This document shows positions 4,376 through 64,000 of a stretch of DNA of 64,000 bases, in pieces. The DNA is taken from positions 143,914-207,913 of the forward strand of contig JBAZTV010000003.1 in the NCBI GenBank assembly GCA_041661765.1, given 5' to 3'. Within the stretch, counting starts at the first letter, position 1, and every line of letters begins with the position of its first letter. The notes beneath the pieces were generated by a model. It was given only the letters and a program-made list of their open reading frames with translations, searched no databases and was not told the DNA's origin. This stretch comes from Candidatus Shapirobacteria bacterium (GTDB lineage Bacteria > Patescibacteriota > Microgenomatia > UBA12405). The translations under genes were made by a program, and so were the position numbers.

Positions 4376-4390
4376 GATAGAATCATATAA

Positions 4391-5985: not shown

Positions 5986-6040
5986 ACCAAATTATATCAA
6001 ATACTAATTAAGTTGTAAACTCAAATATTATATCTAAATA

Positions 6041-40936: not shown

Positions 40937-41051
40937 AACCCACCCTGCTAAAAGACTATTCCTTTTTTTTCAAAATCCACCCCTACCCCTCCTTTGACTT
41001 AAAGGAGGGGTTTATTATTTATAATGTAATTTAAATTACTTATAATAAATA

Positions 41052-44006: not shown

Positions 44007-44138
44007 AACTTAAAATTAAAACCCACCCGCCCTGCGGGCACCCTCCCTTAAAAAAGGAGGGTTTTTGTTTATCCGTAGAGACGTTCTGCAGAACGTCTCT
44101 ACATAAAAAACATTATCCTGGGCACCCCGCATTGCGGG

Positions 44139-45116: not shown

Positions 45117-45335
45117 AATTAATTAAACCCTAACCCTACCCTTTCCCTTGACAGGGCAAGGGTTAAAAAAAATGCTCCCTTGTCAAGGGGAGATGTCCGA
45201 CCTTGCCTGCCGGCAGGCAGGAGGGCTGAGGGGTTTTAAATAAAGAGAGAAGGTGGGTTTTAATTTCTTTTTATAATAAATATTACAATTACTTGATATA
45301 TTTTATTAATATTATTCTCATTTATACTTTAAATT

Positions 45336-45725: not shown

Positions 45726-45939
45726 ATCCCTTTTTATTTTAAAACCCTCCGTGACCAAAACCCCTCTGTTCCCCGCGTCAGCGGGGAACAACAATTCTTT
45801 TTTATTCAAAACCTCTCAGTCTCGCTTCGCTCGCCAGCTCCCCTTAACAAAGGGAGCAGCCTAAAAAATAAAGACTTTCTCCCTTGATAAGGGAGAATCC
45901 CGGTTTATCCGGAAGAGGGATTTGTTGTATACTTAATTA

Positions 45940-46654: not shown

Positions 46655-46814
46655 ATGAATCGCCCCTACATGTTATCCTTTTTATATATAATGCCTCGTA
46701 AAAAACCCTTTCAAAATCCCTCTAAATCTCCCTTTGACTTAAAGGGAGACTTTAAAAACAAAATTTTATTATCCCCTCCTTTAAGTCAAAGGAGGGGTAG
46801 GGGTGGATTTTGAC
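46655..46814 (+). promoter_or_regulatory. Conserved ~155-bp upstream cassette of the giant-protein genes. Contains a putative -10 (tatatataat) and two hairpins. Copies at 56474-56632 (near-identical) and 51820-51925 (partial).
   Basis: ...catgttatcctttttatatataatgcctcgtaaaaaaccctttcaaaatccctctaaatctccctttgacttaaagggagactttaaaaacaaaattttattatcccctcctttaagtcaaaggaggggtaggggtggattttgacATG. Confidence 0.6.
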
Positions 46815-49800
46815 ATGAAATCAAAAAAATTAGATATTAATAATTGGTCATATAAATCCTTATTAATAATTTTATTTTTTCTATTAATTGGTGTTGTTGT
46901 TTTATGGAAATTTGTTTTACCAAATCATAAAGTAGAGGCTAGTTGGTGGAATGATGGTTGGAATTATAGAAAAGCGGTTAGTATTAGTAATACATCAGGA
47001 TCTGATTTAACTGATTTTCAAGTTTCTTTATCTATAGGTACCAGTGCTTTAATTGCTTCCGGTAAAATGCAAAGTGATTGTGATGATATTAGAGTTACAG
47101 ATATTAATGGTAATTTGTTGCCGTATTGGATAGAAGAAAACAATCCTGGTTGTAATCAATTAACCGATACCAAAATTTGGATAAAGGCTAATTCCCTCCC
47201 CGTTTCCGATGCTACTATCTATATTTATTATGGCAACACTTCCGCTCCCTCATCTCAAAGTGGTACTAATACTTTTGAGTTTTTTGATGATTTTAATGAC
47301 GCCAGTAAAACAAACACCAACTGGACCGCAACCGGAACCGGATATACCATTACTGGCGGCAATCTTTACCATTCTACTACATTAGAACCAACCAATAATT
47401 TTACCTCTTATACTATTAATAATAGTTCTGGATTTACTAACGGAATAATTGAATCAAGAATGAAACCAGCTAGTTGTGGAAATTCTTACGGTAAAAGTAT
47501 TATCGCCAGATATACTGATGACAATAATCAATACATAGCTGGATTAGAAGCTTGGACTGGTGGTTACACTCACATCGGTAGAAGAGTAAGCAGTACCTGG
47601 ACAAACATCGATCAAGATATATTAGCCTGCAGTACCAGTACTTGGTATCAATTAAAATGGACTCTCAACGGATCTAATCAGTACTTAACAATTAATGGAG
47701 TTGCTTCCAGTGGTGTTGACACTAATCTTTCTTCTGGAAAAGTTGGCGTTTCTGTTGATAACCGAGAAACAGCAACAGGTGCTTATTGGGATTATATTTT
47801 TACTCATAAATACTCATCAGTTGAACCCACCGCCTCTCTCCAATCAGAAGAAGCCGGCGGCGGACCAATTGCTTATTGGAAATTTGACGAAGGCACCGGA
47901 AACAATGCTTACGATTCATCTAGTCAAAATAATACAGGATCAATGTTAAGTGCCCCTATTTGGAAAAATGAAAGTGAATGTGTTTCTGGAAAATGCTTAG
48001 CTTTTGATAATGTTGATGACGGCGTCAGTATTAATAAAAATTTTGTTGGTTTAACCGACTACACTATGTCAGCTTGGGTTAATATCAAAGGCACACACCA
48101 ACACTACACTGGCGCTATTATGTCTTCTGGTGATTGGAATACCCAATATTGGGTATTCGGTATTAGTCAAGCCAATGATGCCATAAACATGTGTGCCGGC
48201 AGTTGTTCTATAAATTATGCCTTTCAGTTAAATAAATGGACCCATGTAACTGTCACTAGAAGTGGTAGTCAATATACACTTTATATTAATGGAAAAAATA
48301 GTGGTACTTATTCTGGCAGTTCATCTGCTTTGGTCAGTAGTGCCACCAACACCACTATTGGTCGGGAAACTTATGGCGGTGGTTATTTTGCCTTTAATGG
48401 CTGGATCGACGAACCAAAAATTTATCCTTACGCCCGCACCGCCGACCAAATCAAACTCGATTATAATTCTCGCGGATCTTCCAAAGGCACTTCCGCTAAT
48501 TTAGGTGGCGCCGGAACTGATAACAATTTATCTAACGGTTTGGTTGGTTATTGGAAAATGGACGAAGGCACTATGGGAAGCGGAACCACTTTTACAGACT
48601 CATCAGGAAATGGAAATACCGGCACTGGCGTTAGTAGCGTTGCCGTATCAACAGGAGAATTTGGTAATGGTGTTGATATTCCAGGTCCTGGAGGCAGTGG
48701 TTTAGGATCAGTAATTAATGTTAATGATTCTGATTCTTTAGATATTGGTTATACCACACCAATGACAATTTCATTTTGGCTAAATGCCGATTCAACTGCC
48801 TGTGGTGCCATTATAAAAAAATCCGGTCTTTGGGAAATATATCGTTGTTCAGCTAATTTAACTATCCGTTTTGATGGTTATGATCAAGGTAGTTCATTTA
48901 ATTTAAATAACGGTCAATGGTATTTAGTTACAATGACACGTGATCCTTCTACTAACACCACAAAAGTCTATATAAACGGACAACAAACAGATAGTTGGAC
49001 ATATACTATTGGTACCCCAAATTATTCCGGAGGCATGGGAATAGGTGCTTACAATGGCGGATCTTATGCCATCGATGGCAAACTTGACGAAGTCCGCGTC
49101 TACAACCGCGCCCTTTCCCCTTCCGAAGTTTCTCAACTTTATGAATTCGCCCCCGGGCCAATCGGTTATTGGGATTTTAATGAAGCTTCTGGCACCGTCG
49201 CCAATGATAAAAGTGGAAATGGAAAAAATTTAACCACATACAATTCTCCAATTTGGAATCAAGGAAAAATTGGGTCTGCTTTAGATTTTAATGGTTCGAC
49301 TCAATATGCCAGAAGAACTAGTGAAACTAGTTTTCAAAGAGTAAATGGACAAGAAATATCCGTTTCTGTTTGGATATACCCCAAACGCTTAGGCGGACAA
49401 TATCAAGATATTGTCGCCAACAGATCTAGTTCTGGACTTAATTGGCTAATTTATCAACACACTACTGATGGATCAATACAATTCCATGGTTCTGCTCAAA
49501 ATAAATCTACCTATATTCCACCACTTAATCAATGGACTCATATCGAAACAACAATAGATGCAGTAGGAAATTATAAACTTTATGCTAATGGACAGATAGT
49601 TCAAAGTCTAACAGGATACACCTTTGGTACTAGCGGTATCACTGAATTAACTGTCGGCAATTTTAGTGCAAACGAATATTATTTAGGCAAAATAGACGAA
49701 GTCAAAATCTACAACTACGCCCGCACCCAAAAACAAATTATTGAAGATATGAACGCCAACCACCCCGCCGTCTCAGCCAATTCTGCCATCGCTTATTACA

Positions 49801-51809
49801 AATTCGACGAAGGCTACGGCACCACCACCTCAAATTGGGGCAACGGTGGTTCTGCTTTAAATGGAACATTAACTAATATGGCTTCACCTGCTATTACAAC
49901 TTCCGGATGGAATAATTCTGGAAAATTTGGAAAAGCACTTTCATTTGATGCGTCGGATGATTATGTAGATGCAGGTAATGCAGCGAGTTTGACTTTTGGT
50001 TCAGGTCAAAGTTTTACTTATGGAGCTTGGATATATAGTAAAAACCCTCTTGGACGTTGGCAAGGAGTTGTTTATCATGGAGATGTTGGTCAATCTCAAG
50101 GACATTTAGGACTTAATCCCTCAGGCCAACTCTCAGGTGGGACAGGAGATGGCAGCAGTTGGCAAACTCATGAAACAAGCTATTTAATTCCACAAAATAG
50201 GTGGACATATGTTGCTATTGTTTTAAATAGAAACTCAAACATATTAAAATTTTATGCAAATGGTGTTGAGGTAGGAAGCTATTCACATAGTTATGTTCCT
50301 TCGGCGCCAACCATTGGTTTAAGAATAGGAGATGGTAATACGGGTGGTTCAGAACATTTTGATGGTCTCGTTGACGAAGTCAAAATCTACAATTATGCTC
50401 TCACCGCCGATGAAATCAAACAAGATTATAACCAAAGTTCTGCCCTACAAATGGGACAAACTTCTCAAACCATCAGCGGCACCACCACCTCTCTCGATTA
50501 TTGCATCCCCGGCGATACTTCAGCCTGCGCCTCCCCCGTCGCCGAATATAAAATGGATGAAGGCATCGGCACCACCGCTTACGACACCAGTGGTAATAAT
50601 ATAAACGCTGGATTTAATAGTACTCCAACATGGACCCAAGGAAAAATCGGAAAATCATTAAATTTCAATGGCACAACAAATTATTTAACCAACACCAGAA
50701 AAGTTATCACTGGAGGTTTAACCTTTGGGGTTTGGATTAAAACCACCAGCACCGATTCTACTACTACTTATGATGGAAACGCAGCCCAAAATATAATTGG
50801 TGATTCTACTGGCGGTGTCGCTCTTGGTTTTGGAGTTCATGGAGGAAAAGTACGATATCAACACTATACCAGTGCTTGGTATAGTGTTTTAGGTTCAACC
50901 TCAGTCAATGATGGTCTATGGCACTACATCAGCGTCACTCACAATTCATCAACTGGAGCTATTGTTATTTATGTTGATGGCAAACAAGATGGCAGCGGAA
51001 CTCTTGCATATAACGGATCAAGTGCTTATGATATCATCGCTCGTGGTTATGGCGGAGATTATTTTACTGGACAATTAGACCAAATTCGCATCTACAACTA
51101 CGTTCGCACCCCCGCCCAAATCGCCTACGATTACAATAAAGGCGGACCAGTTGGTTGGTGGAAATTTGACGAATGCCAAGGCAATGTTGCCTACGATTGG
51201 AGCGGAGTCGGCAACACCGGCACCATTATTATTGGCGCCTCGGGCACCCAAAATTCCCTTGGTACTTGTGCTGTCGGCACTTCCGCCGCCTGGACCAACG
51301 GCACCAGTGGAAAAATTAATTCTAGTTTAAATTTTGATGGAGTGGATGATGTCGTAGATATTGCAGACAATGCGACCTTAAATGGAACCTCTTTTACTTT
51401 TTCGGCTTGGATATACAGTAATAATTTTAATCAAGAACAAGTATTATTCTCTAATACAAACGCTAGTATTGGATGGCACATTGAAGTTTATCAAGGTAAA
51501 ACAGTAATGCAAGTTTGGCCCGGAGGTGGTTACACAACCTCAATAAAAACCATGTCAAATAATACTTGGTACCACATCGTAATAACTTACAATAATGGTT
51601 CAATTATTTACTATCTCAATGGAGCTCCAAATGGTACTGCTACTCAAACATTTTCTGTCCCTACTGGTCTTACTAAAAGAATAGGACTTTTCTACAATGG
51701 TACTTATCCTTTTGTTGGCAAAATTGATGATGTTCGCATCTACAATTACACTCTAACCTCAGAACAAATAAAAACTCTTTATAACGGCGGAGCGGTTTCG
51801 TTTAACTAA
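46815..51809 (+). CDS. Giant membrane-anchored surface protein 1 (about 1664 aa from ATG 46815; the ORF opens at GTG 46803). N-terminal TM, DUF2341-like domain, then about 6 LamG/Concanavalin-A-like modules.
   Basis: TM LLIILFFLLIGVVVLWKFVL. WWNDGWNYRKAVSI...DFQV...DCDDIRVTDINGNLLPYWIE...IWIKANSLP...IYIYYGN matches the DUF2341 pattern. Repeated modules GPI(A/G)YWKFDEG.G..A.D.S...N.G..... W..GK.G.AL.FDG.DD... with conserved linkers (K/R)IYNYARTPAQIAYDYNKG and KIYPYARTADQIKLDYNSRGSS. Confidence 0.85.
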   Translation: MKSKKLDINNWSYKSLLIILFFLLIGVVVLWKFVLPNHKVEASWWNDGWNYRKAVSISNTSGSDLTDFQVSLSIGTSALIASGKMQSDCDDIRVTDINGNLLPYWIEENNPGCNQLTDTKIWIKANSLPVSDATIYIYYGNTSAPSSQSGTNTFEFFDDFNDASKTNTNWTATGTGYTITGGNLYHSTTLEPTNNFTSYTINNSSGFTNGIIESRMKPASCGNSYGKSIIARYTDDNNQYIAGLEAWTGGYTHIGRRVSSTWTNIDQDILACSTSTWYQLKWTLNGSNQYLTINGVASSGVDTNLSSGKVGVSVDNRETATGAYWDYIFTHKYSSVEPTASLQSEEAGGGPIAYWKFDEGTGNNAYDSSSQNNTGSMLSAPIWKNESECVSGKCLAFDNVDDGVSINKNFVGLTDYTMSAWVNIKGTHQHYTGAIMSSGDWNTQYWVFGISQANDAINMCAGSCSINYAFQLNKWTHVTVTRSGSQYTLYINGKNSGTYSGSSSALVSSATNTTIGRETYGGGYFAFNGWIDEPKIYPYARTADQIKLDYNSRGSSKGTSANLGGAGTDNNLSNGLVGYWKMDEGTMGSGTTFTDSSGNGNTGTGVSSVAVSTGEFGNGVDIPGPGGSGLGSVINVNDSDSLDIGYTTPMTISFWLNADSTACGAIIKKSGLWEIYRCSANLTIRFDGYDQGSSFNLNNGQWYLVTMTRDPSTNTTKVYINGQQTDSWTYTIGTPNYSGGMGIGAYNGGSYAIDGKLDEVRVYNRALSPSEVSQLYEFAPGPIGYWDFNEASGTVANDKSGNGKNLTTYNSPIWNQGKIGSALDFNGSTQYARRTSETSFQRVNGQEISVSVWIYPKRLGGQYQDIVANRSSSGLNWLIYQHTTDGSIQFHGSAQNKSTYIPPLNQWTHIETTIDAVGNYKLYANGQIVQSLTGYTFGTSGITELTVGNFSANEYYLGKIDEVKIYNYARTQKQIIEDMNANHPAVSANSAIAYYKFDEGYGTTTSNWGNGGSALNGTLTNMASPAITTSGWNNSGKFGKALSFDASDDYVDAGNAASLTFGSGQSFTYGAWIYSKNPLGRWQGVVYHGDVGQSQGHLGLNPSGQLSGGTGDGSSWQTHETSYLIPQNRWTYVAIVLNRNSNILKFYANGVEVGSYSHSYVPSAPTIGLRIGDGNTGGSEHFDGLVDEVKIYNYALTADEIKQDYNQSSALQMGQTSQTISGTTTSLDYCIPGDTSACASPVAEYKMDEGIGTTAYDTSGNNINAGFNSTPTWTQGKIGKSLNFNGTTNYLTNTRKVITGGLTFGVWIKTTSTDSTTTYDGNAAQNIIGDSTGGVALGFGVHGGKVRYQHYTSAWYSVLGSTSVNDGLWHYISVTHNSSTGAIVIYVDGKQDGSGTLAYNGSSAYDIIARGYGGDYFTGQLDQIRIYNYVRTPAQIAYDYNKGGPVGWWKFDECQGNVAYDWSGVGNTGTIIIGASGTQNSLGTCAVGTSAAWTNGTSGKINSSLNFDGVDDVVDIADNATLNGTSFTFSAWIYSNNFNQEQVLFSNTNASIGWHIEVYQGKTVMQVWPGGGYTTSIKTMSNNTWYHIVITYNNGSIIYYLNGAPNGTATQTFSVPTGLTKRIGLFYNGTYPFVGKIDDVRIYNYTLTSEQIKTLYNGGAVSFN

Positions 51810-51978
51810 TTTTCCCCTCCTTGTCAAAATCCCTCTAAATCTCCCTTTGACTTAAAGGGAGACTTTAAAAAAAATTATTATCCCCTCCTTTAAGTCAAAG
51901 GAGGGGTAGGGGTGGATTTTGAAGAAAGGGAGGATACCGGTTTATCCGGAGGAAGGATTCAAATGTTAAACTAAATTA

Positions 51979-54900
51979 GTGTCCAAACTTTCTTACAAAA
52001 CCCTTTTAATAATTCTCTTTTTTCTATTAATTGGTGTTATTGTTTTATGGAAATTTGTATTACCCAATCATAAAGTAGAAGCTAGTTGGTGGAATGATGG
52101 TTGGAATTATCGAGTCGCTGTTAATATCGGTAACACTGGCAGTTCACTCACTAATTTTCAAATCCCCATCAGCGTTGGAACATCTGCTCTAATTAATTCC
52201 AGTAAAATGCAATCCGATTGCGATGATATTCGTGTCGTTGATCAAAATGGTAATTTATTAACTTACTGGGTATCTGGCTGTGGTACCACTTCCACTCAAA
52301 TATGGCCTAAAATACCATCAATTCCCAATGGCGGCGCCACCGTTTATGTTTATTATGGCAATCCTTCAGCCACCTCAGTCAAATCCACCGTTGGCACCAG
52401 TGATTATCCTGGATTAAGTTGTAAATCAATTTTAGATGCCGGCAATTCCACTGGTAATAATACTTATTGGATTGATCCAACCAACGGTAACATTTCCGAT
52501 AAATTTCAAGCCTATTGCGATATGACCAATGATTCTGGCGGTTGGATGTTAGTCACCCAAAGTATGATTAGTAGTGAAGTTGGAACTTCCGTCACCACTA
52601 CAAAAACAACTAATATAAATGGCGGAGTCGATATTTCTAATTCAATCACTCATTCAGGATGTGGAGCCAGTATTTATCATCGAGTTTTATTTACAGATAT
52701 TATTCCCTGGACTAAAATTAAAGCCGACTATGAATTTTTGGGTGGTAATTCTTGTTGGAGTATCTTTGGAAATACTAGCTATACAGGTGGTAGCACTAAT
52801 TTAATTGCTTTTAGTTCAGGCACTGATACCATCCATAATCAAGTAAAAATGGGTGGATCAAATGGTGATAATTATGATGGTATTAACTCTCGTTGCGATA
52901 ACGAAACTTTTAATTTTTGGCATTCCAATCAAGGTGTTGGCACCACCAGAAGTGCTCAAGTTATCTTAAGAAGAAACAGTATGTCTTCTCTGGCTGGTCT
53001 TGGAACCGGAGCTGCTTGTAGTACTGCTGGTTATCCTTGGAAATATAAAAATATTTATGTTCGTGAAGATGTCATGACTTTTGCCGCCACTGCCGGAACC
53101 CCAGCCACTGAAGAAGTCGGCGGTGGCCCAATTGCTTATTGGAAATTCGACGAAGGCACCGGCACCACCGCTTACGATTCAACCACTAATCAAAATAACG
53201 GCATATTCAGCACCGGATCCTCTGCCCCCACTTGGCAAATCGAAGATCAATGTATTTCTGGAAAATGCCTATCCTTTAATAATGTAATGGGTAATAAAAT
53301 AAGCAGTAATTTTCGATATGACAATAATCAATATTTCACCATATCAGCCTTTATTAAACCAACCAGCACCAGTTCTTTCAAAATTATTGCTGGTACTGCC
53401 ATTGGAAATAATATTAACAGTGGATTAACCTTAAACGTTAACAATCTCTGTTTTCATGATTATTCTACTTTCAGCGGCGACAGAGAAATTTGTTCGTCCA
53501 ATAATCCTATTCAACTTAACACATGGCAACACATCGCCCTCATTTACAGTAATGGATCACTCGAATTATTTGTTAATGGAAAAAGTGTTAAAACCGGTTC
53601 ATTTACCATTACCAGTTCTGGCAACACTACTTTAATAGGAGGTTCATCAGCTTTCGATTATAGTGGTGGTCGATTTTTTAGTGGTTTCATTGATGATATT
53701 AAAATCTATCCCTACGCCCGCACTGCAGATCAAATCAAATTAGACTACAACTCTCGCGGATCTTCTAATGGTTCCTCCGTTAATCTCGGAGTCCAATCTT
53801 CCACCGCTCCTGATCTAAATTCTAAACTAATCGGTTATTATAAATTCGACGAAGGCAACGGAAACAATATTAATAACACTAAGTCAACATCTTATGATGG
53901 AACCAAATACAACACCACCAATTGGGATAATAATGGTAAATATAATAAAGCTTTATGGTTTGATGGCACTACCGCTCAATTAATTATTAATAATACTAGT
54001 GGATGGAGAAACAATGGTAACGACATGTCTTTATCAATTTGGATAAAACCCGATTCTTCTGATGATGGTGGTTATATTTTTTCAAAACCCTGGAATGGTA
54101 GTGGCGGTTACAATTATGGATTAACATCAAGTGGTGGAGCTAATCCATCATTTTCTTTTACTCTTACCGGCGCTTCTAGTTTTAGCTTAGGATCAAATAA
54201 AACTGTATCCAGTAATCAATGGCATCAAATAATTATAACTGTCAACAATACCACCAAATTAGTCAAATTTTACATCGATGGAAAAATTACAAATAGTAAT
54301 ACTCACACCATCACCGATTGGACACCTAGTGGTGGAGATGTTAGTGTTAATTTCGTTTTAGGTTGTATCTATCCATATGCAAGCAATTCTTGTGCCGGAG
54401 CTACCACCTATGACTTTAAAGGTTATATGGATGAATTTAAATATTACAATACAGTTTTAACCGACGAAGAAGTTAAACAAGATTATAACCAAGGATCGGC
54501 AATTTCTTTTGGTTCTACCAATCAAACCATCGGCGGCACCACCACTTCACTAGAATATTGCATTCCCGGCGATACGTCAACATGTTTAGCACCAGTCGCC
54601 GAATGGAAAATGGACGAAAAAACTGGCATCACCGTCAAAGACACCAGCGGCAATAATAATAACGGAACTATTACTGGCGCCACTTGGACCACTGGCCAAA
54701 TTGGCGCTGGTTTAAAATTTTCCGGCTCAGGCCAAGCTGTATCTGTTGTAGACAATTCCACGTTAAAACCAACCGCCGCCATCACCACTGAGGCTTGGTT
54801 TAATACTATCGATAAAACTGTTACCAGCCAAAGAATATTATCCAAAACCGAAGGTAGCGGCTATCAACTTAGTATTAATGAAAACAGTGCTTGTCCATCC

Positions 54901-55908
54901 AGTACTTTATGTTTTTTAATCAATATTAATGGTACCTATTATTCCGCTACTTACGCCAGTAGTAATTTATCTAATAACACTTGGTATCATATTGCCGGAT
55001 CTTATGATGGTACAACAGTTAAATTATTTCTAAATGGTTCCAATATTGGCACCACTGCCACAATTAGTAATACTATTACTCAAGCCGCTTACAATTTATG
55101 CATTGGTAGTGAAACCGATGCTGGATCTTGCACTTCTGGATTTTTTAATGGCAAAATTGATCATGTCAAAATCTACGACTATGCCCGCACCCCCGCCCAA
55201 ATCGCCTACGACTACAATAAAGGTGCCCCAGTTGGATGGTGGAAACTCGACGATTGCCAGGGTTTGACCGCGTTTGACTCATCTGGATTAGGAAATAATG
55301 GTGCCATTTCCATCGGCCCCAGTGGAACTCAAAACTCTGCCGGCACTTGTCAAATCGGCACTTCCGCCGCCTGGACCAATGGCGCCACTGGAAAAATTAA
55401 TTCTAGTTTAAATTTTGATGGCAATGATGATTATATTTCAACTTCATATATATCAGGTATTCAATCATTTATTACCATTAGTGCATGGATCAAACCAAAC
55501 GCATTAACCAGTACATACGAAATTTCAAATCAAGGCCAATGGGACGGAGGACCTTGGACAGGTTGGCGATTCAGACAAATAAATAATTATATTAACTTTA
55601 AACTTGGCGATAACACTTCTAATGCATATGAAGCATCAGGTGGAACACTTATACAAAATAGTTGGCAACATGTAGTTGGAATTTGGGATGGCAGCTATAT
55701 TCGTTTATATATAAATGGTAAAGAAGTAGTTAAAACTGCTAAATCATTCACTTATGTTGGAAATACTGGTTCTCATTCAATAGGTAAATATGGCGGATCT
55801 GCATATTTTTTTAAAGGCCAAATTGACGATCTTCGCATCTACAACTACGCTCTCACTCCAGAACAAGTCAAAACTGTTTTTAATAATGGAGCGGTGAATT
55901 TTCAATAA
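51979..55908 (+). CDS. Giant surface protein 2 (1309 aa). Same architecture, with a unique ~230-aa insert carrying a fibrinogen-related-like motif. The N-terminus is degenerate: no ATG, first possible start GTG.
   Basis: Shares TM plus DUF2341-like N-terminus and the C-terminal ...IDDLRIYNYALTPEQVKTVFNNGAVNF. Insert: GLSCKSILDAGNSTGNNTYWIDPTNGNISDKFQAYCDMTNDSGGWMLVTQ. Upstream ATG 51963 is out of frame and followed by a stop. Confidence 0.8.
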   Translation: MSKLSYKTLLIILFFLLIGVIVLWKFVLPNHKVEASWWNDGWNYRVAVNIGNTGSSLTNFQIPISVGTSALINSSKMQSDCDDIRVVDQNGNLLTYWVSGCGTTSTQIWPKIPSIPNGGATVYVYYGNPSATSVKSTVGTSDYPGLSCKSILDAGNSTGNNTYWIDPTNGNISDKFQAYCDMTNDSGGWMLVTQSMISSEVGTSVTTTKTTNINGGVDISNSITHSGCGASIYHRVLFTDIIPWTKIKADYEFLGGNSCWSIFGNTSYTGGSTNLIAFSSGTDTIHNQVKMGGSNGDNYDGINSRCDNETFNFWHSNQGVGTTRSAQVILRRNSMSSLAGLGTGAACSTAGYPWKYKNIYVREDVMTFAATAGTPATEEVGGGPIAYWKFDEGTGTTAYDSTTNQNNGIFSTGSSAPTWQIEDQCISGKCLSFNNVMGNKISSNFRYDNNQYFTISAFIKPTSTSSFKIIAGTAIGNNINSGLTLNVNNLCFHDYSTFSGDREICSSNNPIQLNTWQHIALIYSNGSLELFVNGKSVKTGSFTITSSGNTTLIGGSSAFDYSGGRFFSGFIDDIKIYPYARTADQIKLDYNSRGSSNGSSVNLGVQSSTAPDLNSKLIGYYKFDEGNGNNINNTKSTSYDGTKYNTTNWDNNGKYNKALWFDGTTAQLIINNTSGWRNNGNDMSLSIWIKPDSSDDGGYIFSKPWNGSGGYNYGLTSSGGANPSFSFTLTGASSFSLGSNKTVSSNQWHQIIITVNNTTKLVKFYIDGKITNSNTHTITDWTPSGGDVSVNFVLGCIYPYASNSCAGATTYDFKGYMDEFKYYNTVLTDEEVKQDYNQGSAISFGSTNQTIGGTTTSLEYCIPGDTSTCLAPVAEWKMDEKTGITVKDTSGNNNNGTITGATWTTGQIGAGLKFSGSGQAVSVVDNSTLKPTAAITTEAWFNTIDKTVTSQRILSKTEGSGYQLSINENSACPSSTLCFLININGTYYSATYASSNLSNNTWYHIAGSYDGTTVKLFLNGSNIGTTATISNTITQAAYNLCIGSETDAGSCTSGFFNGKIDHVKIYDYARTPAQIAYDYNKGAPVGWWKLDDCQGLTAFDSSGLGNNGAISIGPSGTQNSAGTCQIGTSAAWTNGATGKINSSLNFDGNDDYISTSYISGIQSFITISAWIKPNALTSTYEISNQGQWDGGPWTGWRFRQINNYINFKLGDNTSNAYEASGGTLIQNSWQHVVGIWDGSYIRLYINGKEVVKTAKSFTYVGNTGSHSIGKYGGSAYFFKGQIDDLRIYNYALTPEQVKTVFNNGAVNFQ

Positions 55909-55948
55909 TTTATAAACTCACCCTACCCTCCTTTAAAATAGGGAACAA

Positions 55949-56395
55949 TTATTTATTGTTTAAAACCCTCCGCCCTTTGGGCACCTCCCTTGACAGGGAG
56001 GCTTTTCTTTCTTGAATATTTTTTATTATTTCATTTTTAACTTTTTCCAATTCATTTAATATTTCTTTGTTTTTAAATCTTATGGTTTTAATATTTAAAC
56101 AATTTAAAAATTTATCTCTCTTTGAGTCTTGTTCTTGTTTTTTAAGATGATATCCACCATCAATTTCGATCACTAATAATAATTCAGAACAATAAAAATC
56201 TAAAATAAATCTGTCTAATGGTTTTTGTCTGGTAAATTTATAATTCATTGGTCTATTTTTCAAGAATTCATACCAAATTTTTGATTCAGCTTTAGTCATT
56301 TTATGTCTATTTATTTTGGCTGCCCATCTTAATTGTTCCAAATATTTTAAATTTCCCTTTTGAGTCATTATTTCAACACATGTAATATCTCTCAC
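55949..56395 (-). CDS. DUF559 endonuclease-domain protein. Paralog of 41052-41462. The 3' end reads into a flanking hairpin repeat.
   Basis: KAESKIWYEFLKNRPMNYKFTRQKPLDRFILDFYCSELLLVIEIDGGYH...DSKRDKFLNCLNIKTIRFKN. Flanked by inverted copies of aaaaccctccg..cacctcccttgacagggaggctt at 55961-56005 and 56408-56462. Confidence 0.8.
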   Translation of the reverse strand: MRDITCVEIMTQKGNLKYLEQLRWAAKINRHKMTKAESKIWYEFLKNRPMNYKFTRQKPLDRFILDFYCSELLLVIEIDGGYHLKKQEQDSKRDKFLNCLNIKTIRFKNKEILNELEKVKNEIIKNIQERKASLSREVPKGRRVLNNK

Positions 56396-56632
56396 AAATA
56401 ATTATTAGGATTTAAAGCCTCCCTGTCAAGGGAGGTGGCGAGTGAAACGAGACGGAGGGTTTTGAATTAAAAATGAATCCCCTCCCCATGTTATCCTTTT
56501 TATATATAATGCCTCGTAAAAAACCCTTTCAAAATCCCTCTAAGTCTCCCTTTGACTTAAAGGGAGACTTTAAAAACAAAATTTTATTATCCCCTCCTTT
56601 AAGTCAAAGGAGGGGTAGGGGTGGATTTTGAC

Positions 56633-59600
56633 ATGAAATCAAAAAAATTAGATATTAATAATTGGTCAGTAAAGAGTTTATTAATTATTTTATTTTTCTT
56701 ATTAATTAGTATTGTTATTCTTTGGAAATTTGTCTTACCAAATCATAAAGTAGAGGCTAGTTGGTGGAATGATGGTTGGAATTATAGGAAAGCGGTTAGT
56801 ATTAGTAATACTGGTGCTGCTCAAACCAACACCCAAATTAAAATCCTTAATAATTATGATCTAAGTGCTCTAGTTACTGCTGGAAAAATTCAAGCCGATT
56901 TAGACGATTTAAGATTTACTGACATCAATGGAAATTTACTAAATTATTGGATTGAAGATTCCACTAATAATAGTGTTGATATTTGGGGTGTTGTTTCTTC
57001 ACTTCCAACATCAGGTACTACTATTTATATGTATTATGGAAATCCTTCAGCAACCAGTGTCAGTAGCACTTCAAATATAACCATCGGTGGCACAATGACA
57101 TCTATCGGTGGCTATCGTATTCACACATTTACTAGTAATGGAACCTTAACAAACGCCAATAATACCAATGCCGAAGTTTTAGTTGTCGCCGGTGGCGGCG
57201 GCGGCGGATCTTCATCTGGTGTTGGTGATGGTGGTAGTGGCGGCGGAGGCGCTGGAGGTCTAACCTATAATTCATCTTATGCCCTAACTCAAGGACAAAT
57301 TATTAATATCACTGTTGGTGTCGGTGGAACCAATGGTGCCACTTCTTCACATCAATCAGGGACAGATGGTGGCAATTCTATTTTTGGAGCTATTACTACA
57401 AACGGTGGTGGAGGCGGTGGAACCACTGGTGTAAATGGTCGACCTGGGGGTTCCGGTGGTGGCGGTGGTTACAATGGTTATACTACCATTCGCTATGGTG
57501 GAAGTGGTGTTGTTGGAATTGGAAATTCAGGTGGAGCTACTACTGATTTAGCTTCAGCATCAGGAGCTGGTGGAGGTGGAGCCGGAGGAGTTGGTGGAAA
57601 TAATATAACAGGTCATGTTGGAGGAAATGGTGGTTTAGGAATTAATTATTCTATAACTGGAATCGGGGTAACCTATGCCAGTGGTGGTCGTGGCGGCGGC
57701 GGCGCCGCCCCTGTTAACAAAACAGCCAATACTGGTAATGGCGGTGATGGAGCTTATTCTACCAGTATACCCACCAGTGGTGCTTCCGGCATTGTTGTCG
57801 TCAGATTTTTATCTGGAACCGCCAGCACCCCTTCCACCGAAGAAGCCGGCGGTGGCCCAATTGCTTATTGGAAATTCGACGAAGGCACCGGCACTTCTGC
57901 TTATAATTCAACTACAAGCAACCATAATGGTGCTCTTCAAAACGGAACTTCTTGGGCCTCTGAAGATCAATGTGTTTCAGGAAAATGTTTAAAATTTGAT
58001 GGAGTAAATGATTATGTTAGTGCTGGGGTTGGAACCGATTATCTCCCCATGAATACTTTTTCTATATGTGCTTGGGCAAAATCTCCAGGCCTTGCCTCTG
58101 GTATGAGTTTAAATGGAATAATAAGTTACACCTATGGTTTAACAATGTCCATTGACGGATCTGGACATTTTCTTAGTAGAGTAGATGATGGATCAAATAT
58201 AGTTGGTGTAACTGAATCATCTCAAAATCTTTATGATAATAAATTTCATCATCTATGTTTTACATTTGATGGTACTAATCGTTATATGTATATTGACGGT
58301 AAATTAAAAGTAACAACCGCAACTACATGGAACAATAGATATTCAAGTAATTCAGTAAATATCGGACACGAAAACAATAATTCACCTATTTATAAATTTA
58401 ATGGTTTCATTGATGAACCAAAAATTTATCCCTACGCCCGCACCGCCGCTCAAATCAAACTCGACTACAATTCCCGCGGTTCTTCCAAAGGCACTTCCGC
58501 CAATCTCGGATCCGCCGCTAGTGATAATAATTTATCTGATGGATTAGTCGGTTATTGGAAAATGGACGAAAATACAGGCATAAGTATTACTGATAGTTCA
58601 GGATTAGGTTACACCGGAATTTTTGGAACTGGAGATTCTGCTCCTTCTTGGTCAAGTGGAAAATTCGGGGTTGGCACCAGTTTTGACGGTAGTAATGATT
58701 ATATTGACGCCGGAAATGTTTTAAATATGGGCACTAATGATATGACCATATCAACGTGGATAAAAACCACCAATTCTAGTTCCACTGCTCAATATATAGT
58801 AAGTAAATCTTTAGCCGCTGCTCAAAATTATCGCTATGGTATTTTTACTAGAAATGGTACTGCTGGAATTTTTATGCAAGGTGACGGTGGAGCTGATGTT
58901 GTGGTTTATGGTACTAAAAATATAGCCGATGGAAATTGGCATAATATTACATATATTTTTAACAGAGATGATAAAGCCGATATTTATGTTGATGGAATTT
59001 ACGATGTGGGGCAAACAATATCTCAATGGAACGGAAAAAATATGGTTTCTATTAATCCTTTTAGGATCGGTGCCTACACTGCAGCTGACAACACAGGTAT
59101 TACTTCCTCATTTAGTGGTTTTATAGATGAAACTCGAGTTTACAACCGCGCCCTTTCCCCCACTGAAGTTTCTCAACTTTACGAATTCGCCCCCGGACCA
59201 ATTTTTTATTGGGATTTTAACGAAGGAATCGGTACCACTGCTTTTGACAAACAAAACCACACAAATTTACCTATTTCAAATGCCACCTATACATCGGGTA
59301 AATATGGCGGTGGATTAAATTTCAATGGAAATGCTTGGTTAGAAAAATCAATTTCTCCATCAATTGCCGCCGCTCAAGATTATACCCAATGTCTTTGGTT
59401 TAACACTTCAACCAATGCCACTAGACAAATATTAATTGATGATTCTAATCAATGGGAACATTGGATCGCTATTAACACCAATAAAACAATTTCTGGTTGT
59501 TATTATAATGCTTCTCAAATGTGTGCCACTTCTACTAACATCATTAATTTAAACACCTGGAATTATGTTTGTTTAGCCGTTCAATCTGGACAAAAAATGA

Positions 59601-61783
59601 GCTTATTTTTAAATGGATCACTTTGGGCTGAAAACACTAATATTGGCAGCACTTTACCTAAAATTTATGATGATGTTTGTATTGGTAAAGCTGGAGGAGG
59701 TTCCAATGAAAAATTTACTGGAAAAATTGACGATGTCAAAATCTACAATTACGCCCGCACCCAAAAACAAATCACTGAAGATATGAATGCTAACCACCCT
59801 GCCGTTTCTTCTAATTCTATGATTGGTTATTGGAAATTTGACGAAGGCAGTGGCACCACCGCCAACAATTCCGGCAACGGCGGTTCTGCTTTAAACGGAA
59901 CATTAACTGGTACAACCATCCCAACCTGGACCAACGACAGTAAATCTGGTAAAGCCATCAATTTAAATGGCATCAATAGTTTTGCTCGAACTGGCATTAT
60001 CCCTGCCTCCGATGCTTTTTCTCTTTCTGTTTGGTTCAAAGCCAATCAAGTTAGAGATCAAAATCGAATTTATTGGGGCACTGGTACAGACAAAGCAATA
60101 CTAGCTTTTTCCGGTACATCAGGATATTTAACTTGGTATATGTCTGCCTCTGGTGGTAATACAGGTTATAAAACTACATCAAAAAAAATTAATATTAATG
60201 ACTGGAATCACGTTGTTTTAGTTTACAACGGCAGTATTGTTAAATGTTTTATTAATGGAGTCGAAGATAATATCATAGGTACTTTAACTGGTACTAGTGT
60301 TGCTTCTGCTATTAATTTAGGTACTAATTATAATAATACTGGAAATTGGTTTGACGGAAAAATAGATGAGGTTAAAGCTTATAACTACGCTCTCACCTCC
60401 GACGAAATCAAACTCGACTACAATCAAGGTTCTGCCCTACAAATGGGACAAACTTCTCAAACCATCAGTGGCACCACCACTTCTCTAGAATATTGCATTC
60501 CTGGCGATACTTCGGCCTGCGCCTCCCCTGTTGCCGAATGGAACTTCGAAGAAAACACCGGCACCACCACCAAAGATTCTAGTGGCAATAATAACACCGG
60601 CACTTTTGGCACCGGATCTTCCGCCCCCACCTGGACAATTGGCAAAAAAAATACCGGCGCCGGATTAAGATTTGATGGAGTTAATGATTATTTAACATTC
60701 CCTAATTATTTTAATTTAAGTCCCGCCACCCTAGAATTTTGGTTTAAAGCCAATAGTTGGTCCAACTCCCCATTAATTATCGGTAAAGATAGTGCTGGCG
60801 CCACTAACGGATATGTTCAATATGTTAGTAGTCAATTAAGATTTTATGCACCTGGAAACACAGTAACTGTTAATTGGGGTAATCCATCATTAAACACCTG
60901 GCACCATGCCACTTTAGTTATCACCGGAACTCAACATTTAGCTTATTTAGATGGTGCATTAGTTGGCTCTCCAGTTTCTTCCGCACTGGCTTTATTCACT
61001 GGCAACTATAATTTTAAAGTTGGCTGTTACGATAATGGCGCTTTAGCATTCAATGGTTCCATTGATCAAATGAAGATTTACAATTACGCCCGCACCCCCG
61101 CCCAAGTCGCCTACGACTATAACAAAGGGGGTCCAATTGGTTGGTGGAAGCTTGACGAATGCCAAGGTTCCGTGGCTAACGACTCATCCGGAATAGGTAA
61201 TACTGGATCAATTAATATCAGTGCTAGCGGCACCCAAACCTCTGTCGGTACTTGCACCACTTCTGGCACTGCCTGGGGCAACGGTGCTAGCGGTAAAATC
61301 AACTCTTCGCTAAACTTCGATGGAACAGATGATGAAATTAGTATAGGATCATTTGGTATTCTAAATAATTACACTATATCATTTTGGGCAAAACATAATG
61401 TTTCAAGTAAGATGCCTATTGGTTCTAGGTCTGGCACTACTTATTATTGGTATGGAGACAGTAGTTGGAAATATACTCATGGAGGAACTTCCGGTGAATT
61501 TTATTATCCAAAGTCAGTAAATATTCCCAATGGGACCTGGGGACATTTCACTGTTACTTATGATGGAATTAATGTCCGCATTTACAGAAACGGAAAGTTT
61601 GAAGGTTCTCAAGGTTCTACTGGTACAGCAGATTTTTCTAATGGATTTTATTTAGGATGGGGATATCCAGATAGTAGTTATCATTTTAATGGTCAAATAG
61701 ATGACGTTCGCATCTACAACTACGCCTTAACTCCGGAACAAGTCAAGACACTTTACAATGGTGGAGCGGTCAGCTTTAATTAA
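56633..61783 (+). CDS. Giant surface protein 3 (about 1716 aa from ATG 56633; the ORF opens at GTG 56621). TM, DUF2341-like domain, a ~250-aa glycine-rich segment, then about 7 LamG/ConA-like modules.
   Basis: N-terminal 45 aa nearly identical to protein 1. Gly-rich region ...YRIHTFTSNGTLTNANNTNAEVLVVAGGGGGGSSSGVGDGGSGGGGAGGL...GGGGGGTTGVNGRPGGSGGGGGYNG...ASGIVVVRF. C-terminal IDDVRIYNYALTPEQVKTLYNGGAVSFN is identical in style to proteins 1 and 2. Confidence 0.85.
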   Translation: MKSKKLDINNWSVKSLLIILFFLLISIVILWKFVLPNHKVEASWWNDGWNYRKAVSISNTGAAQTNTQIKILNNYDLSALVTAGKIQADLDDLRFTDINGNLLNYWIEDSTNNSVDIWGVVSSLPTSGTTIYMYYGNPSATSVSSTSNITIGGTMTSIGGYRIHTFTSNGTLTNANNTNAEVLVVAGGGGGGSSSGVGDGGSGGGGAGGLTYNSSYALTQGQIINITVGVGGTNGATSSHQSGTDGGNSIFGAITTNGGGGGGTTGVNGRPGGSGGGGGYNGYTTIRYGGSGVVGIGNSGGATTDLASASGAGGGGAGGVGGNNITGHVGGNGGLGINYSITGIGVTYASGGRGGGGAAPVNKTANTGNGGDGAYSTSIPTSGASGIVVVRFLSGTASTPSTEEAGGGPIAYWKFDEGTGTSAYNSTTSNHNGALQNGTSWASEDQCVSGKCLKFDGVNDYVSAGVGTDYLPMNTFSICAWAKSPGLASGMSLNGIISYTYGLTMSIDGSGHFLSRVDDGSNIVGVTESSQNLYDNKFHHLCFTFDGTNRYMYIDGKLKVTTATTWNNRYSSNSVNIGHENNNSPIYKFNGFIDEPKIYPYARTAAQIKLDYNSRGSSKGTSANLGSAASDNNLSDGLVGYWKMDENTGISITDSSGLGYTGIFGTGDSAPSWSSGKFGVGTSFDGSNDYIDAGNVLNMGTNDMTISTWIKTTNSSSTAQYIVSKSLAAAQNYRYGIFTRNGTAGIFMQGDGGADVVVYGTKNIADGNWHNITYIFNRDDKADIYVDGIYDVGQTISQWNGKNMVSINPFRIGAYTAADNTGITSSFSGFIDETRVYNRALSPTEVSQLYEFAPGPIFYWDFNEGIGTTAFDKQNHTNLPISNATYTSGKYGGGLNFNGNAWLEKSISPSIAAAQDYTQCLWFNTSTNATRQILIDDSNQWEHWIAINTNKTISGCYYNASQMCATSTNIINLNTWNYVCLAVQSGQKMSLFLNGSLWAENTNIGSTLPKIYDDVCIGKAGGGSNEKFTGKIDDVKIYNYARTQKQITEDMNANHPAVSSNSMIGYWKFDEGSGTTANNSGNGGSALNGTLTGTTIPTWTNDSKSGKAINLNGINSFARTGIIPASDAFSLSVWFKANQVRDQNRIYWGTGTDKAILAFSGTSGYLTWYMSASGGNTGYKTTSKKININDWNHVVLVYNGSIVKCFINGVEDNIIGTLTGTSVASAINLGTNYNNTGNWFDGKIDEVKAYNYALTSDEIKLDYNQGSALQMGQTSQTISGTTTSLEYCIPGDTSACASPVAEWNFEENTGTTTKDSSGNNNTGTFGTGSSAPTWTIGKKNTGAGLRFDGVNDYLTFPNYFNLSPATLEFWFKANSWSNSPLIIGKDSAGATNGYVQYVSSQLRFYAPGNTVTVNWGNPSLNTWHHATLVITGTQHLAYLDGALVGSPVSSALALFTGNYNFKVGCYDNGALAFNGSIDQMKIYNYARTPAQVAYDYNKGGPIGWWKLDECQGSVANDSSGIGNTGSINISASGTQTSVGTCTTSGTAWGNGASGKINSSLNFDGTDDEISIGSFGILNNYTISFWAKHNVSSKMPIGSRSGTTYYWYGDSSWKYTHGGTSGEFYYPKSVNIPNGTWGHFTVTYDGINVRIYRNGKFEGSQGSTGTADFSNGFYLGWGYPDSSYHFNGQIDDVRIYNYALTPEQVKTLYNGGAVSFN

Positions 61784-61795: not shown

Positions 61796-61869
61796 GTAGA
61801 GACGTAGCGCGCTACGTCTCTACAAAAATAATATTCTCCCAGTAGAGACGCCACGCATGGCGTCTCTAC
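61796..61869. repeat. Two tandem family-1 REP-like palindromes (GTAGAGACG-N8-CGTCTCTAC) immediately after giant gene 3
   Basis: gtagagacgtagcgcgctacgtctctac at 61796-61823 and gtagagacgccacgcatggcgtctctac at 61842-61869. Identical or near-identical copies at 8184-8210, 9956-9983, 32926-32953, 34264-34291, 34386-34413, 44075-44102, 62594-62621 and 63520-63547. Confidence 0.9.
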
Positions 61870-62073
61870 CAAAAACCACTTTCTTTATTATTTAAAACCC
61901 TCCGTCTCTTCGAGCCACCTCCCTTGACAGGGAGGCTTCAGCTCACCAAATAAAGGTCCCCTGTCAAGGGGAAGGTGGTACGAAGTACCAAGGGGTTTTG
62001 TATTCTTTTTATGATAAATATTACAATTATTTGATGTATTTTATTAATATTATTCTCATTTATACTTTAAATT

Positions 62074-62343
62074 ATGCTTACCCAACAAGATTTATCTCAA
62101 TTTAAAAAAATACTCCAACCCATCAACGACAGATTAGATAAAATTAACGATAAGTTAATTGAACATGATAAAAAGTTTGACAAAATCGATGCTAAGTTTA
62201 AAAAAATAGACAAACAACTCAAAAAAATTCAAAAAGATCTCACCACCACTATAAAATATTTCGATAATAATTGTCTTACACACAAAAAACATCTCGACAG
62301 AATAGAACAGCATCTCGGTTTATCACAATTTCCAATCATCTAA
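62074..62343 (+). CDS. Small coiled-coil protein, short paralog (89 aa) of 45336-45725 with fewer heptad repeats
   Basis: MLTQQDLSQFKKILQPINDRLDKINDKLIEHDKKFDKIDAKFKKIDKQLKKIQKDLTTTIKYFDNNCLTHKKHLDRIEQHLGLSQFPII. The 5' flank (~90 bp) is ~95% identical to the 45245-45335 flank. Confidence 0.5.
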   Translation: MLTQQDLSQFKKILQPINDRLDKINDKLIEHDKKFDKIDAKFKKIDKQLKKIQKDLTTTIKYFDNNCLTHKKHLDRIEQHLGLSQFPII

Positions 62344-63033
62344 ATTTAAAACGCCCCCCCCATAATATTCATTTGTTCCATCCCTCACAAAATTTTCTCT
62401 ACGATATATCCCCTACGACCTAAATCCTAATTTTAACCATTCCTTAAACACCAAACCATTCTTTTATACCGATTAGCAAACAGACCAAAATTCTGCCACC
62501 AAAAATCCCTCTAGTACATCAAAAATAAACAAAACTAAAACTAACCCATCAAAAATTTAATTTTAAAAAGTATCTTATAAAAAGAAATAATCTGTAGAGA
62601 CGCCATGCATGGCGTCTCTACAATATTTAAATATGTCTCTACTAATTTAAATATGTCTCAGCAAAAATTATTTTCACACTTTACAAACACATCCTATAAT
62701 TATTTTTAGTTATATACATCACATCTCTTTATCTACAATCTATCACCTACGACCTAAGATTCATTTATACCCTTCTCTTAAACACAAAAACGCCCTCCAC
62801 TCCCCTTTAGCACCACCGTGTCCAATCTGCCAACAAAAATAAAATAAATACATCATAAACAAACATTTAAAAACATTGTGACTCAAAAATTAAATTGAAA
62901 AAAATAGCTTATATTTTAAAATCCCTCTCTAGTTTCAATCTTCCCCCTGACCCCCTTCTTTGACAAGACGGGGGAAATAATTGTCTTTTTTAAAGTCCCT
63001 CTTGTCAAAGAGGGATTTAGGGAGATTGAATCC

Positions 63034-63486: not shown

Positions 63487-64000
63487 AAAAAAATAATTGT
63501 TTAAAACCCACTTGACTCTGTAGAGACGTAGCGCGCTACGTCTCTACTTAATAAACCCGATGTCTCTATTAATCAAACCTGATTCCCTTCCTTTTAGCAC
63601 CAACTACCAACCACTGCTAATCTCTAATAAATTTAAAAACACACCTAAAAACAGGCATATTTAACCTAATTTTTAAACTTAAAAATCAAAAAATAATCCC
63701 AAAACTAATTTTTTCTCCCAAAAAGGATACAAATTATCACCCTCTAGCTACTTATATATCAATATAATTCATTATATCTTAAACAAAATTTATTAAAAAT
63801 TAACATTAATTTAATTTTTAATTTAAAAAAAATTTATTTTTTTACCAAAAAATTCACTTCCTAATTACCTTTTTTAAATCATCTTTGTACCCCTAAAGTA
63901 TATCATTTAATATCTTTTAGAGTAAACCGCATTTCTCCGCATTAACAAATTTTTACCGGCTCGTATTAGGTTATATTTTGATTTTATTTATACCACATTG

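Follow-up and report, generated by a model that had tools for sequence, protein, structure and literature searches.

Repeats of the BoxC, PIT and triplex-motif type have been known since the 1990s; they form triplexes in vitro and mark unstable genome regions. DUF559 (PF04480) is a large protein family for which structures have been solved and to which no function has been assigned. The two were found together in a stretch of 64,000 nucleotides from Candidatus Shapirobacteria (contig JBAZTV010000003.1, positions 143,914 to 207,913), referred to below as the window. Here a DUF559 gene, designated D2 (55949-56395, minus strand), lies between two inward-facing copies of a triplex-type repeat. In Escherichia coli the triplex motif has the consensus CCCTCNCCC-N3-6-GGGNGAGGG-N3-GGGNGAGGG (PMC4666352, Holder et al. 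2015). The K-12 genome contains 23 such motifs, which form an inverted pair in five cases. The motifs adopt a triplex fold in vitro and mark variable regions; no function is known for them, nor any associated mobility gene (PMC4666352).

The repeats of the Shapirobacteria resemble BoxC, PIT and triplex-motif elements in several respects. They consist of three consecutive blocks, namely a pyrimidine arm, a purine arm and a second purine block which mirrors it (class II). They are G/C-rich and are scattered in dozens over both strands, for the most part between genes and often as close inverted pairs, and they are tied to locally variable genome regions. Differences from the E. coli motif are found in the second loop, which in canonical Shapirobacteria copies measures 11-23 nt and usually forms a variable hairpin (3 nt in E. 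coli), in the length of the blocks (6-7 nt instead of 9 nt), in the first loop, which is TTGACA, and in the presence of copies in frame inside genes. Moreover, no protein partner is known for BoxC and triplex-motif elements, whereas here a DUF559 gene is nested between two copies. This arrangement recalls the REPIN-RAYT systems, where a single-copy nuclease gene is likewise located between inverted copies of a dispersed repeat (PMC3116915, PMC3337134, PMC5581495). As in those systems, there are also single repeats and inverted doublets that enclose no gene, gene clades go with repeat subtypes, and the gene is under purifying selection. However, the enzyme is a Vsr-like PD-(D/E)xK nuclease and not an HUH/Y1 transposase of the IS200 type, the repeat is a triplex motif and not a REP hairpin with a GTAG head, and the DUF559 gene changes its site more freely.

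The D2 gene and its two repeats form a unit of about 0.5 kb (approximately 55960-56474) which has been relocated and inverted among relatives of the window organism and is present at a conserved junction in some of them and absent in others. Orthologues of D2 (79-97% amino acid identity) were available on ten contigs, comprising three contigs of species-representative metagenome-assembled genomes (MAGs) and seven further assembly contigs; loci used for comparison carry L numbers. On all ten a repeat in plus orientation is located about 40 nt upstream of the gene and a repeat in minus orientation overlaps its 3' end. Five different sites are occupied: between two giant LamG genes (the window and L028-30), between two genes called X and Y (L017, L002), between glyA and a membrane protein gene (L023, L034/35), between a gene for a 354-aa protein and a TPR gene (L031), and between the genes for a DUF6909 protein and FtsH (L032/33/42). 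Nucleotide homology between the window and its relatives stops at about 55960 and 56474, a few bases from the outer ends of the repeats. The landing sites are mostly between convergent genes and the cassette is found in either orientation. L017 and L002 have orthologous genes on both sides of the X/Y site (65-72% identity), yet the cassette of one is reversed with respect to that of the other. The same variants of the middle hairpin are seen in flanking repeats at different sites, both upstream and downstream of the gene, but seldom in solo copies. The repeats therefore move together with the gene, and recombination reshuffles them.

A junction at which presence and absence can be compared is provided by the DUF6909 gene, which was used as a handle to collect 57 metagenome loci. 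The convergent arrangement of DUF6909 and FtsH genes persists across 47-100% protein identity, and in most cases the junction is empty, with a gap of 8-110 nt. It contains D2 in L042, genes of a different clade (that of D1, the second DUF559 gene of the window) in opposite orientation in L036 and L041, and in L065 a gene of yet another DUF559 clade. The DUF6909 gene of L082 is followed by a D1-like gene, with no FtsH gene detected downstream. The orthologues of D1 in L036 (77% identity) and L041 (65%), which thus occupy a site other than that of D1 in the window, have repeats on both sides, and more distant DUF559 genes are also flanked by inverted triplex-type repeats, of other subtypes. An earlier note, made from the sequence of the window alone, had proposed such a comparison and held that DUF559 genes at syntenic positions without flanking repeats would point to a housekeeping role; the opposite was observed, as the repeats are kept while the sites change. 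Elsewhere the same junction holds unrelated small cargo, such as an open reading frame (ORF) which appears to resemble the four-helix-bundle '23S rRNA IVS' proteins (L067 5543-5902, minus strand) and adjacent small ORFs with the look of a BrnT/BrnA-type toxin-antitoxin system (L074 6438-7036, minus strand). The DUF6909/FtsH junction looks like a general insertion hot spot.

Target-site duplications, which the note had suggested looking for, were absent from four cassettes including that of the window. The only flank duplication seen is in L082, where 30-40 nt of the DUF6909 3' end are present in diverged form on both sides of the DUF559 cassette (1420-1452 and 2033-2070); it could be a trace of the insertion event. 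No site-specific recombinase was found among the called neighbours of any locus, and no methyltransferase partner adjoins a D2-type gene in any of them. In common with miniature inverted-repeat transposable elements (MITEs), the gene-carrying form is bounded by repeats in inverted orientation. The cassette differs from these and from insertion sequences in that its only ORF is the DUF559 gene, with no transposase and no target-site duplication. Plasmid or phage origin of the cassette was also considered and rejected, since blastn searches against plasmid and phage collections gave no match.

DUF559 genes and triplex-type repeats are strongly and repeatedly associated. With a triplex finder that was written independently of the covariance model described below, inward-facing motifs within 90 nt on both sides were detected at 10 of 13 DUF559 genes, but at only 2 of 140 control ORFs from the same loci. 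The link extends beyond the Shapirobacteria. In E. coli K-12, 167 nt separate the DUF559 gene ycjD from no. 9 of the E. coli triplex motifs (TMECO; positions according to PMC4666352, Suppl. Table S2). The stop codon of ycjD is situated inside a degenerate hairpin of the TMECO type (11397-11419 in L099), and a duplicated fragment of a DUF559 3' end (11319-11378) is located between this hairpin and the TMECO motif (11200-11243). By our own estimate, the chance that a given gene flanks a TMECO motif is below 1% (18 sites, about 4,300 genes). In the fabI-ycjD-sapF region about 38% of E. coli genomes diverge directly after fabI. This variation was rejected as a sign of ycjD mobility because an efflux island explains it in the one genome inspected. 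Three or four convergent pairs of triplex motifs, with a period of about 280 nt, come after a DUF559 gene in Neisseria (L109 2037-2730; L113 1196-2133). DUF559 genes have also been reported to be 14-fold enriched among predicted inversion targets (PMC9881135), as would fit genes overlapped by inverted repeats.

The inverted repeats flanking D2 are members of a dispersed, genome-wide family and not terminal repeats specific to the cassette. A scan of species-representative genomes for a 23-mer of the repeat yielded 30 exact copies at 26 loci in six MAGs, all of them Candidatus Shapirobacteria or mislabelled relatives. In every one of these copies AAACCCTCCG is located upstream of the hairpin, at variable distance, and the intervening segment usually forms a hairpin of variable sequence. 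In an alignment of 32 copies, 8 of the 9 base pairs of this middle hairpin were changed on both sides, and the compensatory signal (53 cells versus 18.8 in shuffles) was far above that of all slid registers. A covariance model built from these copies gave 79 matches in 31 sources from Shapirobacteria, which belong to the Candidate Phyla Radiation (CPR), in about 300 kb. It recognised four canonical and about eleven diverged copies in the window (about 15 in total). The 18-mer hairpin CCTCCCTTGACAGGGAGG has four exact copies there (37998 and 55984, plus strand; 56418, minus strand; 61918, plus strand) and none in 100 shuffles, while AAAACCCTCCG is matched 7 times versus 1.3 expected.

Each copy is composed of a 6-bp hairpin, a variable second hairpin and an outer block mirroring one arm of the first. 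The outer block repeats the 5' arm of the conserved hairpin in reverse order without complementing it, and this mirror relation is kept in the variants CCCTCC/CCTCCC, CCCTCT/TCTCCC, CCCCTCT/TCTCCCC, CCCTTT/TTTCCC and CCCCTT/TTCCCC; in the variant CCCACCC/CCCTCCC an A of the outer block faces a T of the arm. Read on the purine-rich strand, the order is pyrimidine arm, loop (TTGACA), purine arm R1, linker and purine block R2, with R2 antiparallel to R1. The triples observed (G.G-C, A.A-T and T.A-T) are those of the purine, or reverse-Hoogsteen, motif. This triplex code is obeyed at 546 of 564 mirrored positions in 94 distinct copies, compared with 50-57% in shifted registers, and 9 of 19 distinct types comply with it fully (2.4 expected, p about 2e-4). 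Watson-Crick folds leave the third block unpaired. The independent finder detected 29 motifs in the window versus 1-3 in Markov controls. Judged from these sequence features, the repeat is the Shapirobacteria form of the intrastrand triplex motif (BoxC/PIT/TM, class II), and a physical triplex is predicted. The linker between the two purine blocks is 2-3 nt in short subtypes; the length of 11-23 nt in canonical copies exceeds the 1-6 nt loop limit of the ITxF definition. As the TMECO consensus has no match in the window, the two represent different sequence families with a shared architecture.

Several other identities of the repeat were considered and rejected. Rfam at the gathering threshold returned only tRNAs and an L10 leader and nothing for the repeat, and a permissive Rfam scan of 55900-56640 gave only chance matches of miRNA hairpins, to the doublet upstream of giant gene 3; a known RNA family was dismissed on these scans. 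Watson-Crick pairing of the outer block, as in an attenuator, fits only the self-mirroring CCTCC type and fails for CCCTCT, CCCTTT and CCCCTT, the conserved feature being the mirror relation. A G-quadruplex is not compatible with the GGGAGA/AGAGGG type, in which the G-runs are gone. The repeats follow gene ends in both orientations, 27 copies being co-oriented with the gene and 15 reversed (many were unassigned), so that a strict terminator orientation was likewise rejected.

The left repeat of the window cassette (55962-56008, plus strand) was matched by the covariance model with 68.6 bits and by the triplex finder at 55965-56001. It starts with the third block, AAAACCCTCC, followed by a small hairpin (G CCC TTT GGG C), the dinucleotide CA, the conserved hairpin (CCTCCC TTGACA GGGAGG) and CTTTTCT. 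The right repeat is inverted with respect to the left one (56411-56463, minus strand; 69.4 bits; triplex finder 56418-56460). Its middle segment is TCTCGTTTCACTCGC, and this type of copy is also found 5' of the orthologues in L023, L034 and L032. The inverted pair reported in the earlier note is therefore real, whereas its uniform N10 spacer is not: the distance between AAAACCCTCCG and the hairpin is 9 nt on the left and 15 nt on the right, and throughout the family this spacer is a variable hairpin. The left repeat sits inside the 3' end of the D2 ORF, where it makes up the last 18 or so codons (encoded tail ..KASLSREVPKGRRVL). The right repeat lies on the 5' side, and its TTGACA hairpin loop coincides with the -35 box of a predicted sigma-70-like promoter for D2 (56401-56429, minus strand; 17-nt spacer, AATAAT). 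This site matches the consensus at 11 of 12 positions and is the best promoter-like site predicted in 55850-56700; TTGACA and AATAAT are kept in L017, L002 and L032.

The note had also taken the hairpin for the terminator of giant genes 2 and 3. This appears to be correct for gene 2, since a T-run (CTTTTCTTTC) follows the hairpin of the left repeat (55984-56001) downstream of that gene and the copy looks like its terminator. For gene 3 no T-run accompanies the copy, which is separated from the stop codon by 111 nt. The T-run is also missing from many copies of the family, which end with CTTTAAA, and the right copy of the cassette terminates no gene in the window.

D2 matches PF04480 with an E-value of 6.4e-29 (100.5 bits), and the second DUF559 gene of the window, D1 (41052-41462, plus strand), does so with 5.1e-24 (84.7 bits); both scores are above the curated cut-off of 20.6 bits. 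The two paralogues are 53% identical and belong to different DUF559 clades. D2 is 148 aa long if translation starts at GTG, or 139 aa from the ATG at 56368. It is similar to the uncharacterised DUF559 structure PDB 3HRL (E 1e-18), which was also the best Foldseek match (TM-score 0.89) of an AlphaFold2 model (pLDDT 82). The next match was the catalytic domain of the homing endonuclease I-Bth0305I (3R3P; TM-score 0.79, E 1.9e-4), while Vsr reached an E-value of 1.2. By the predicted structure, I-Bth0305I, a Vsr-like homing endonuclease, is thus the closest characterised structural relative of D2, in agreement with the grouping of Vsr, DUF559 and 3R3P in the literature (PMC3424549; also PMC3239194). 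Residues D66, E77, D79, H83, D90, R93 and D94 are invariant among 20 homologues. The dN/dS ratio is about 0.05-0.16 against six orthologues, and about 0.08 against the closest of them, indicating purifying selection. D2 is a constrained nuclease gene with intact catalytic residues and, according to the model, an intact fold; nuclease activity is predicted.

The likeness to I-Bth0305I and other EDxHD homing endonucleases (PMC3239194, PMC2677866) comprises the catalytic fold, the small and self-contained nature of the gene and the presence/absence polymorphism at a conserved junction (DUF6909/FtsH). Unlike I-Bth0305I, D2 does not reside in an intron or intein and, according to Pfam and the structure model, lacks a NUMOD/HTH DNA-binding module, consisting of one nuclease domain preceded by two short N-terminal helices. 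Profile searches of D2 against Pfam, NCBIfam and PADLOC gave DUF559-type matches only and no Y1 (HUH) transposase of the IS200/IS605 type. Because the sites of the cassette differ, any target must be the repeat and not a host gene sequence.

What kind of process could have produced this distribution? We propose that the D2 segment is a relocating nuclease cassette tied to triplex repeats and moved by nuclease-driven recombination between them, a reading for which we consider the chances to be about even. The nuclease would recognise the repeats, either in a folded form or as duplex, and cut at or near them. The break would be repaired by recombination with another copy of the repeat, and because the cassette has a repeat at both ends, repair could copy or move the gene into other repeat-bearing sites, in a homing-like manner and without fixed orientation. 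The same process would shuffle and spread the repeats. The 5' repeat would supply the -35 box of the D2 promoter, and the 3' repeat overlaps the end of the ORF.

A number of observations weigh against this proposal. Nuclease action on the repeats, repair from other copies and the route of movement are steps that we infer from sequence comparisons, and triplex formation by the E. coli motifs was demonstrated in vitro, not in vivo (PMC4666352). D2 was seen only once in each contig examined, whereas multiplication might be anticipated for a gene that actively homes to dozens of targets. In the comparison of the window with the CAYSME MAG, dS was 0.74 for D2 and 1.0-1.7 for three host genes, a suggestive difference calculated from only 68 synonymous sites; a dS only modestly below that of host genes would fit mostly vertical descent. 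For no filled site was the exact empty target with a repeat pair recovered, and the closest empty DUF6909/FtsH sites (L043-L046) hold unrelated hairpins, not these repeats. In the window, D1 has a repeat on its 5' side only. Finally, no triplex motif was detected within 1.5 kb of a DUF559 gene from Neisseriaceae (L101).

Passive relocation by the recombination system of the host is the main rival. The nuclease would then have an unrelated role, in Vsr-type repair or in defence, and homologous recombination between the repeats would move or flip the gene; repeat pairs between convergent genes would be safe landing places that supply a promoter box and terminators. In favour of this, the repeats far outnumber the gene and follow many genes in both orientations, the left copy is terminator-like and the right copy provides a -35 box, the DUF6909/FtsH junction also accepts unrelated cargo, and D2 has been seen only as a single copy under purifying selection. 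Weak PADLOC matches of D2 to methyl-directed restriction enzymes point in the same direction, but no methyltransferase adjoins the gene in any locus. It is also difficult to see why a mere passenger should be enclosed by inward-facing motifs so much more often than the other ORFs of the same loci (2 of 140), why this arrangement should recur in several DUF559 clades with different repeat subtypes, and why DUF559 genes should adjoin triplex motifs in E. coli and Neisseria as well. We regard it as rather unlikely. A close variant of our own proposal is a domesticated partnership of the REPIN-RAYT kind, in which a vertically inherited, single-copy host gene maintains, processes or disseminates the repeats without mobilising itself, changes of site being incidental. 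One D2 gene per contig, strong purifying selection and a dS near that of host genes all agree with this, and inverted flanking copies of a dispersed family which also forms gene-less doublets are hallmarks of RAYTs (PMC3116915, PMC5581495). Nevertheless, a fixed host gene would be expected to move less than D2, which occupies five sites in two orientations although its clade is narrow (79-97% identity), and different DUF559 clades occupy the same junction. On balance this variant seems improbable to us.

Two further explanations are poorly supported. The inverted repeats might be recombination sites of a programmed switch that flips the gene in a regulated manner. The inversion of the X/Y cassette between L017 and L002, the opposite directions of genes of different DUF559 clades at the DUF6909/FtsH junction (L032 versus L036/L041) and the enrichment of DUF559 among predicted inversion targets (PMC9881135) could be read in this way. 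However, the cassette encodes no recombinase, the loci share no common neighbour, and inversion cannot account for five different sites. Furthermore, inversion would leave expression unchanged, because the -10 box of the promoter flips with the gene and TTGACA is present in both repeats. A switch is therefore very unlikely. Least probable of all, and hardly credible, is that D2 is an ordinary syntenic gene between two ordinary terminators with an incidental inverted repeat. The terminator-like left copy is in its favour, but the right copy terminates no gene in the window, D2 is not syntenic, exact 23-mers and 10-mers are common to different loci and species, and the association statistics argue against chance.

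For the nuclease cassette, it follows that the earlier suggestion of a small selfish element can be kept in part: the segment is a discrete unit that has been relocated, but given strong purifying selection and one copy per contig, plain selfishness was not shown. A role in promoting recombination of the LamG genes found no support. The genes neighbouring D2 do encode giant LamG/DUF2341 proteins (46803-51809, 51979-55908 and 56621-61783, giant genes 1, 2 and 3), whereas the genes beside D1 have no detectable domains, so that the surface-protein setting claimed for both DUF559 genes was shown for the second one only. A specific association with LamG arrays was rejected as well: when all DUF559 clades are counted, only two of the seven insertion sites sampled, the window locus and L039, adjoin giant surface genes.

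Further members of the repeat family are present in the window. The third copy that the note had recorded after giant gene 3 was recovered there at 61894-61942 (plus strand, 61.8 bits) as a canonical copy. It is joined by a diverged inverted partner (61949-61999, minus strand, 27.0 bits), and the two constitute a gene-less convergent pair (61894-61999) with the repeat arrangement of the cassette. The model matches are 6 nt and the conserved cores 13 nt apart, and when folded the pair becomes one long hairpin (-56.9 kcal/mol, z -7.2). A solo copy with the exact 18-mer hairpin and CCCACCC as the outer block is located at 37974-38023 (plus strand, 42.6 bits), between two minus-strand genes and at the 5' end of the comEC ORF. 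This ORF (37039-38037, minus strand) encodes a ComEC competence protein (PF03772, 2e-41). Its presence suggests that the window organism probably takes up DNA, which bears on the spread of a repeat-flanked cassette; it also bears on a reading of the conserved repeat blocks as uptake signals.

The repeat 5' of D1 (40968-41020, plus strand; triplex finder 40974-41010) is of a subtype without the middle hairpin, AAAATCCACCCC-TA-CCCCTCC-TTTGACTTAAA-GGAGGGG, an element which also precedes the D1 orthologue in L036. The two short subtypes form a convergent pair shortly before giant gene 3 (56532-56631; triplex finder 56533-56567 and 56590-56626). Giant genes 1 and 2 are preceded by the same pair as well (46714-46815 and 51827-51927, respectively), and the two subtypes are exactly those that flank the D1 orthologue in L036. 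In the leaders of the giant genes (46768-46815, 51877-51927 and 56586-56631) the third block, GGGGTGGA, is located 8 nt before the ATG, that is at the position of a ribosome-binding site, and the short repeat may consequently affect translation or transcription of the giant LamG genes. A segment encoding a small coiled-coil ORF is duplicated in the window (45255-45727 and 61993-62345, 86-89% identity), and both copies adjoin triplex-type repeats, one before giant gene 1 and the other after giant gene 3. A second family of dispersed palindromes, GTAGAGACG-N8-10-CGTCTCTAC, starts with GTAG as REP sequences do. It is present at 44075-44103, 61796-61824, 61842-61869, 62594-62621 and 63519-63547 of the window and also in L011 and in L039 (2738-2766).

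In two species a repeat is inserted in frame into the gene for tRNA-dihydrouridine synthase (Dus), at 5858-5904 of L015 (ORF 5362-6435) and 6438-6484 of L026 (ORF 5876-7015). It adds the peptide SLPVKGGAQRAEGF right before the conserved SVKTRLG and recalls the Rickettsia palindromic elements, which like these repeats and MITEs are short and structured, lie between genes and are also found in frame in ORFs. We know of no nuclease linked to the Rickettsia elements. A remnant of D2 beside the solo copy of L015 was considered and rejected, as the 18-nt match is AT-rich Dus coding sequence. In L017 two nearly identical CCCTCT/TCTCCC copies, 160 nt apart (4362-4411 and 4524-4573), are located in the N-terminal part of a long ORF upstream of the cassette; either they are in frame or the ORF is over-called. 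L020 (JAQWFB010000002.1, Shapirobacteria) has nine same-strand matches with E <= 0.001 within 8 kb (1046-7760), roughly one per small gene.

The kind of repeat, the gene family and the location of a gene inside its own repeats (in RAYTs) are already known. Full-text searches on DUF559 and on bacterial intrastrand triplex repeats yielded no description of a pairing of the two, nor of a CPR form of the repeat whose second loop contains a hairpin and which also occurs in frame within genes. It is tempting to extend the proposal beyond the Shapirobacteria and to regard DUF559 as the missing protein partner of BoxC/PIT/triplex repeats across CPR, Enterobacteria and Neisseria, cutting at elements made of a hairpin and a third strand. 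This extension is tentative and we consider it doubtful. If it were true, cutting by DUF559 would be the cause of repeat spread as well as of the local genome instability that has been reported, the DUF559 gene would persist by living inside a repeat pair, and two orphans, DUF559 and the BoxC/PIT/triplex-motif repeats, would be explained together. A nuclease gene nested in triplex-repeat pairs is in any case a concrete candidate which can be tested in E. coli by means of ycjD and TMECO, and the interest of the finding lies in making the BoxC/triplex-motif question accessible to experiment. If borne out, it would add a second enzyme class to the repeat-nuclease partnerships of the REPIN-RAYT type, and such partnerships would also be present in the reduced genomes of CPR bacteria.

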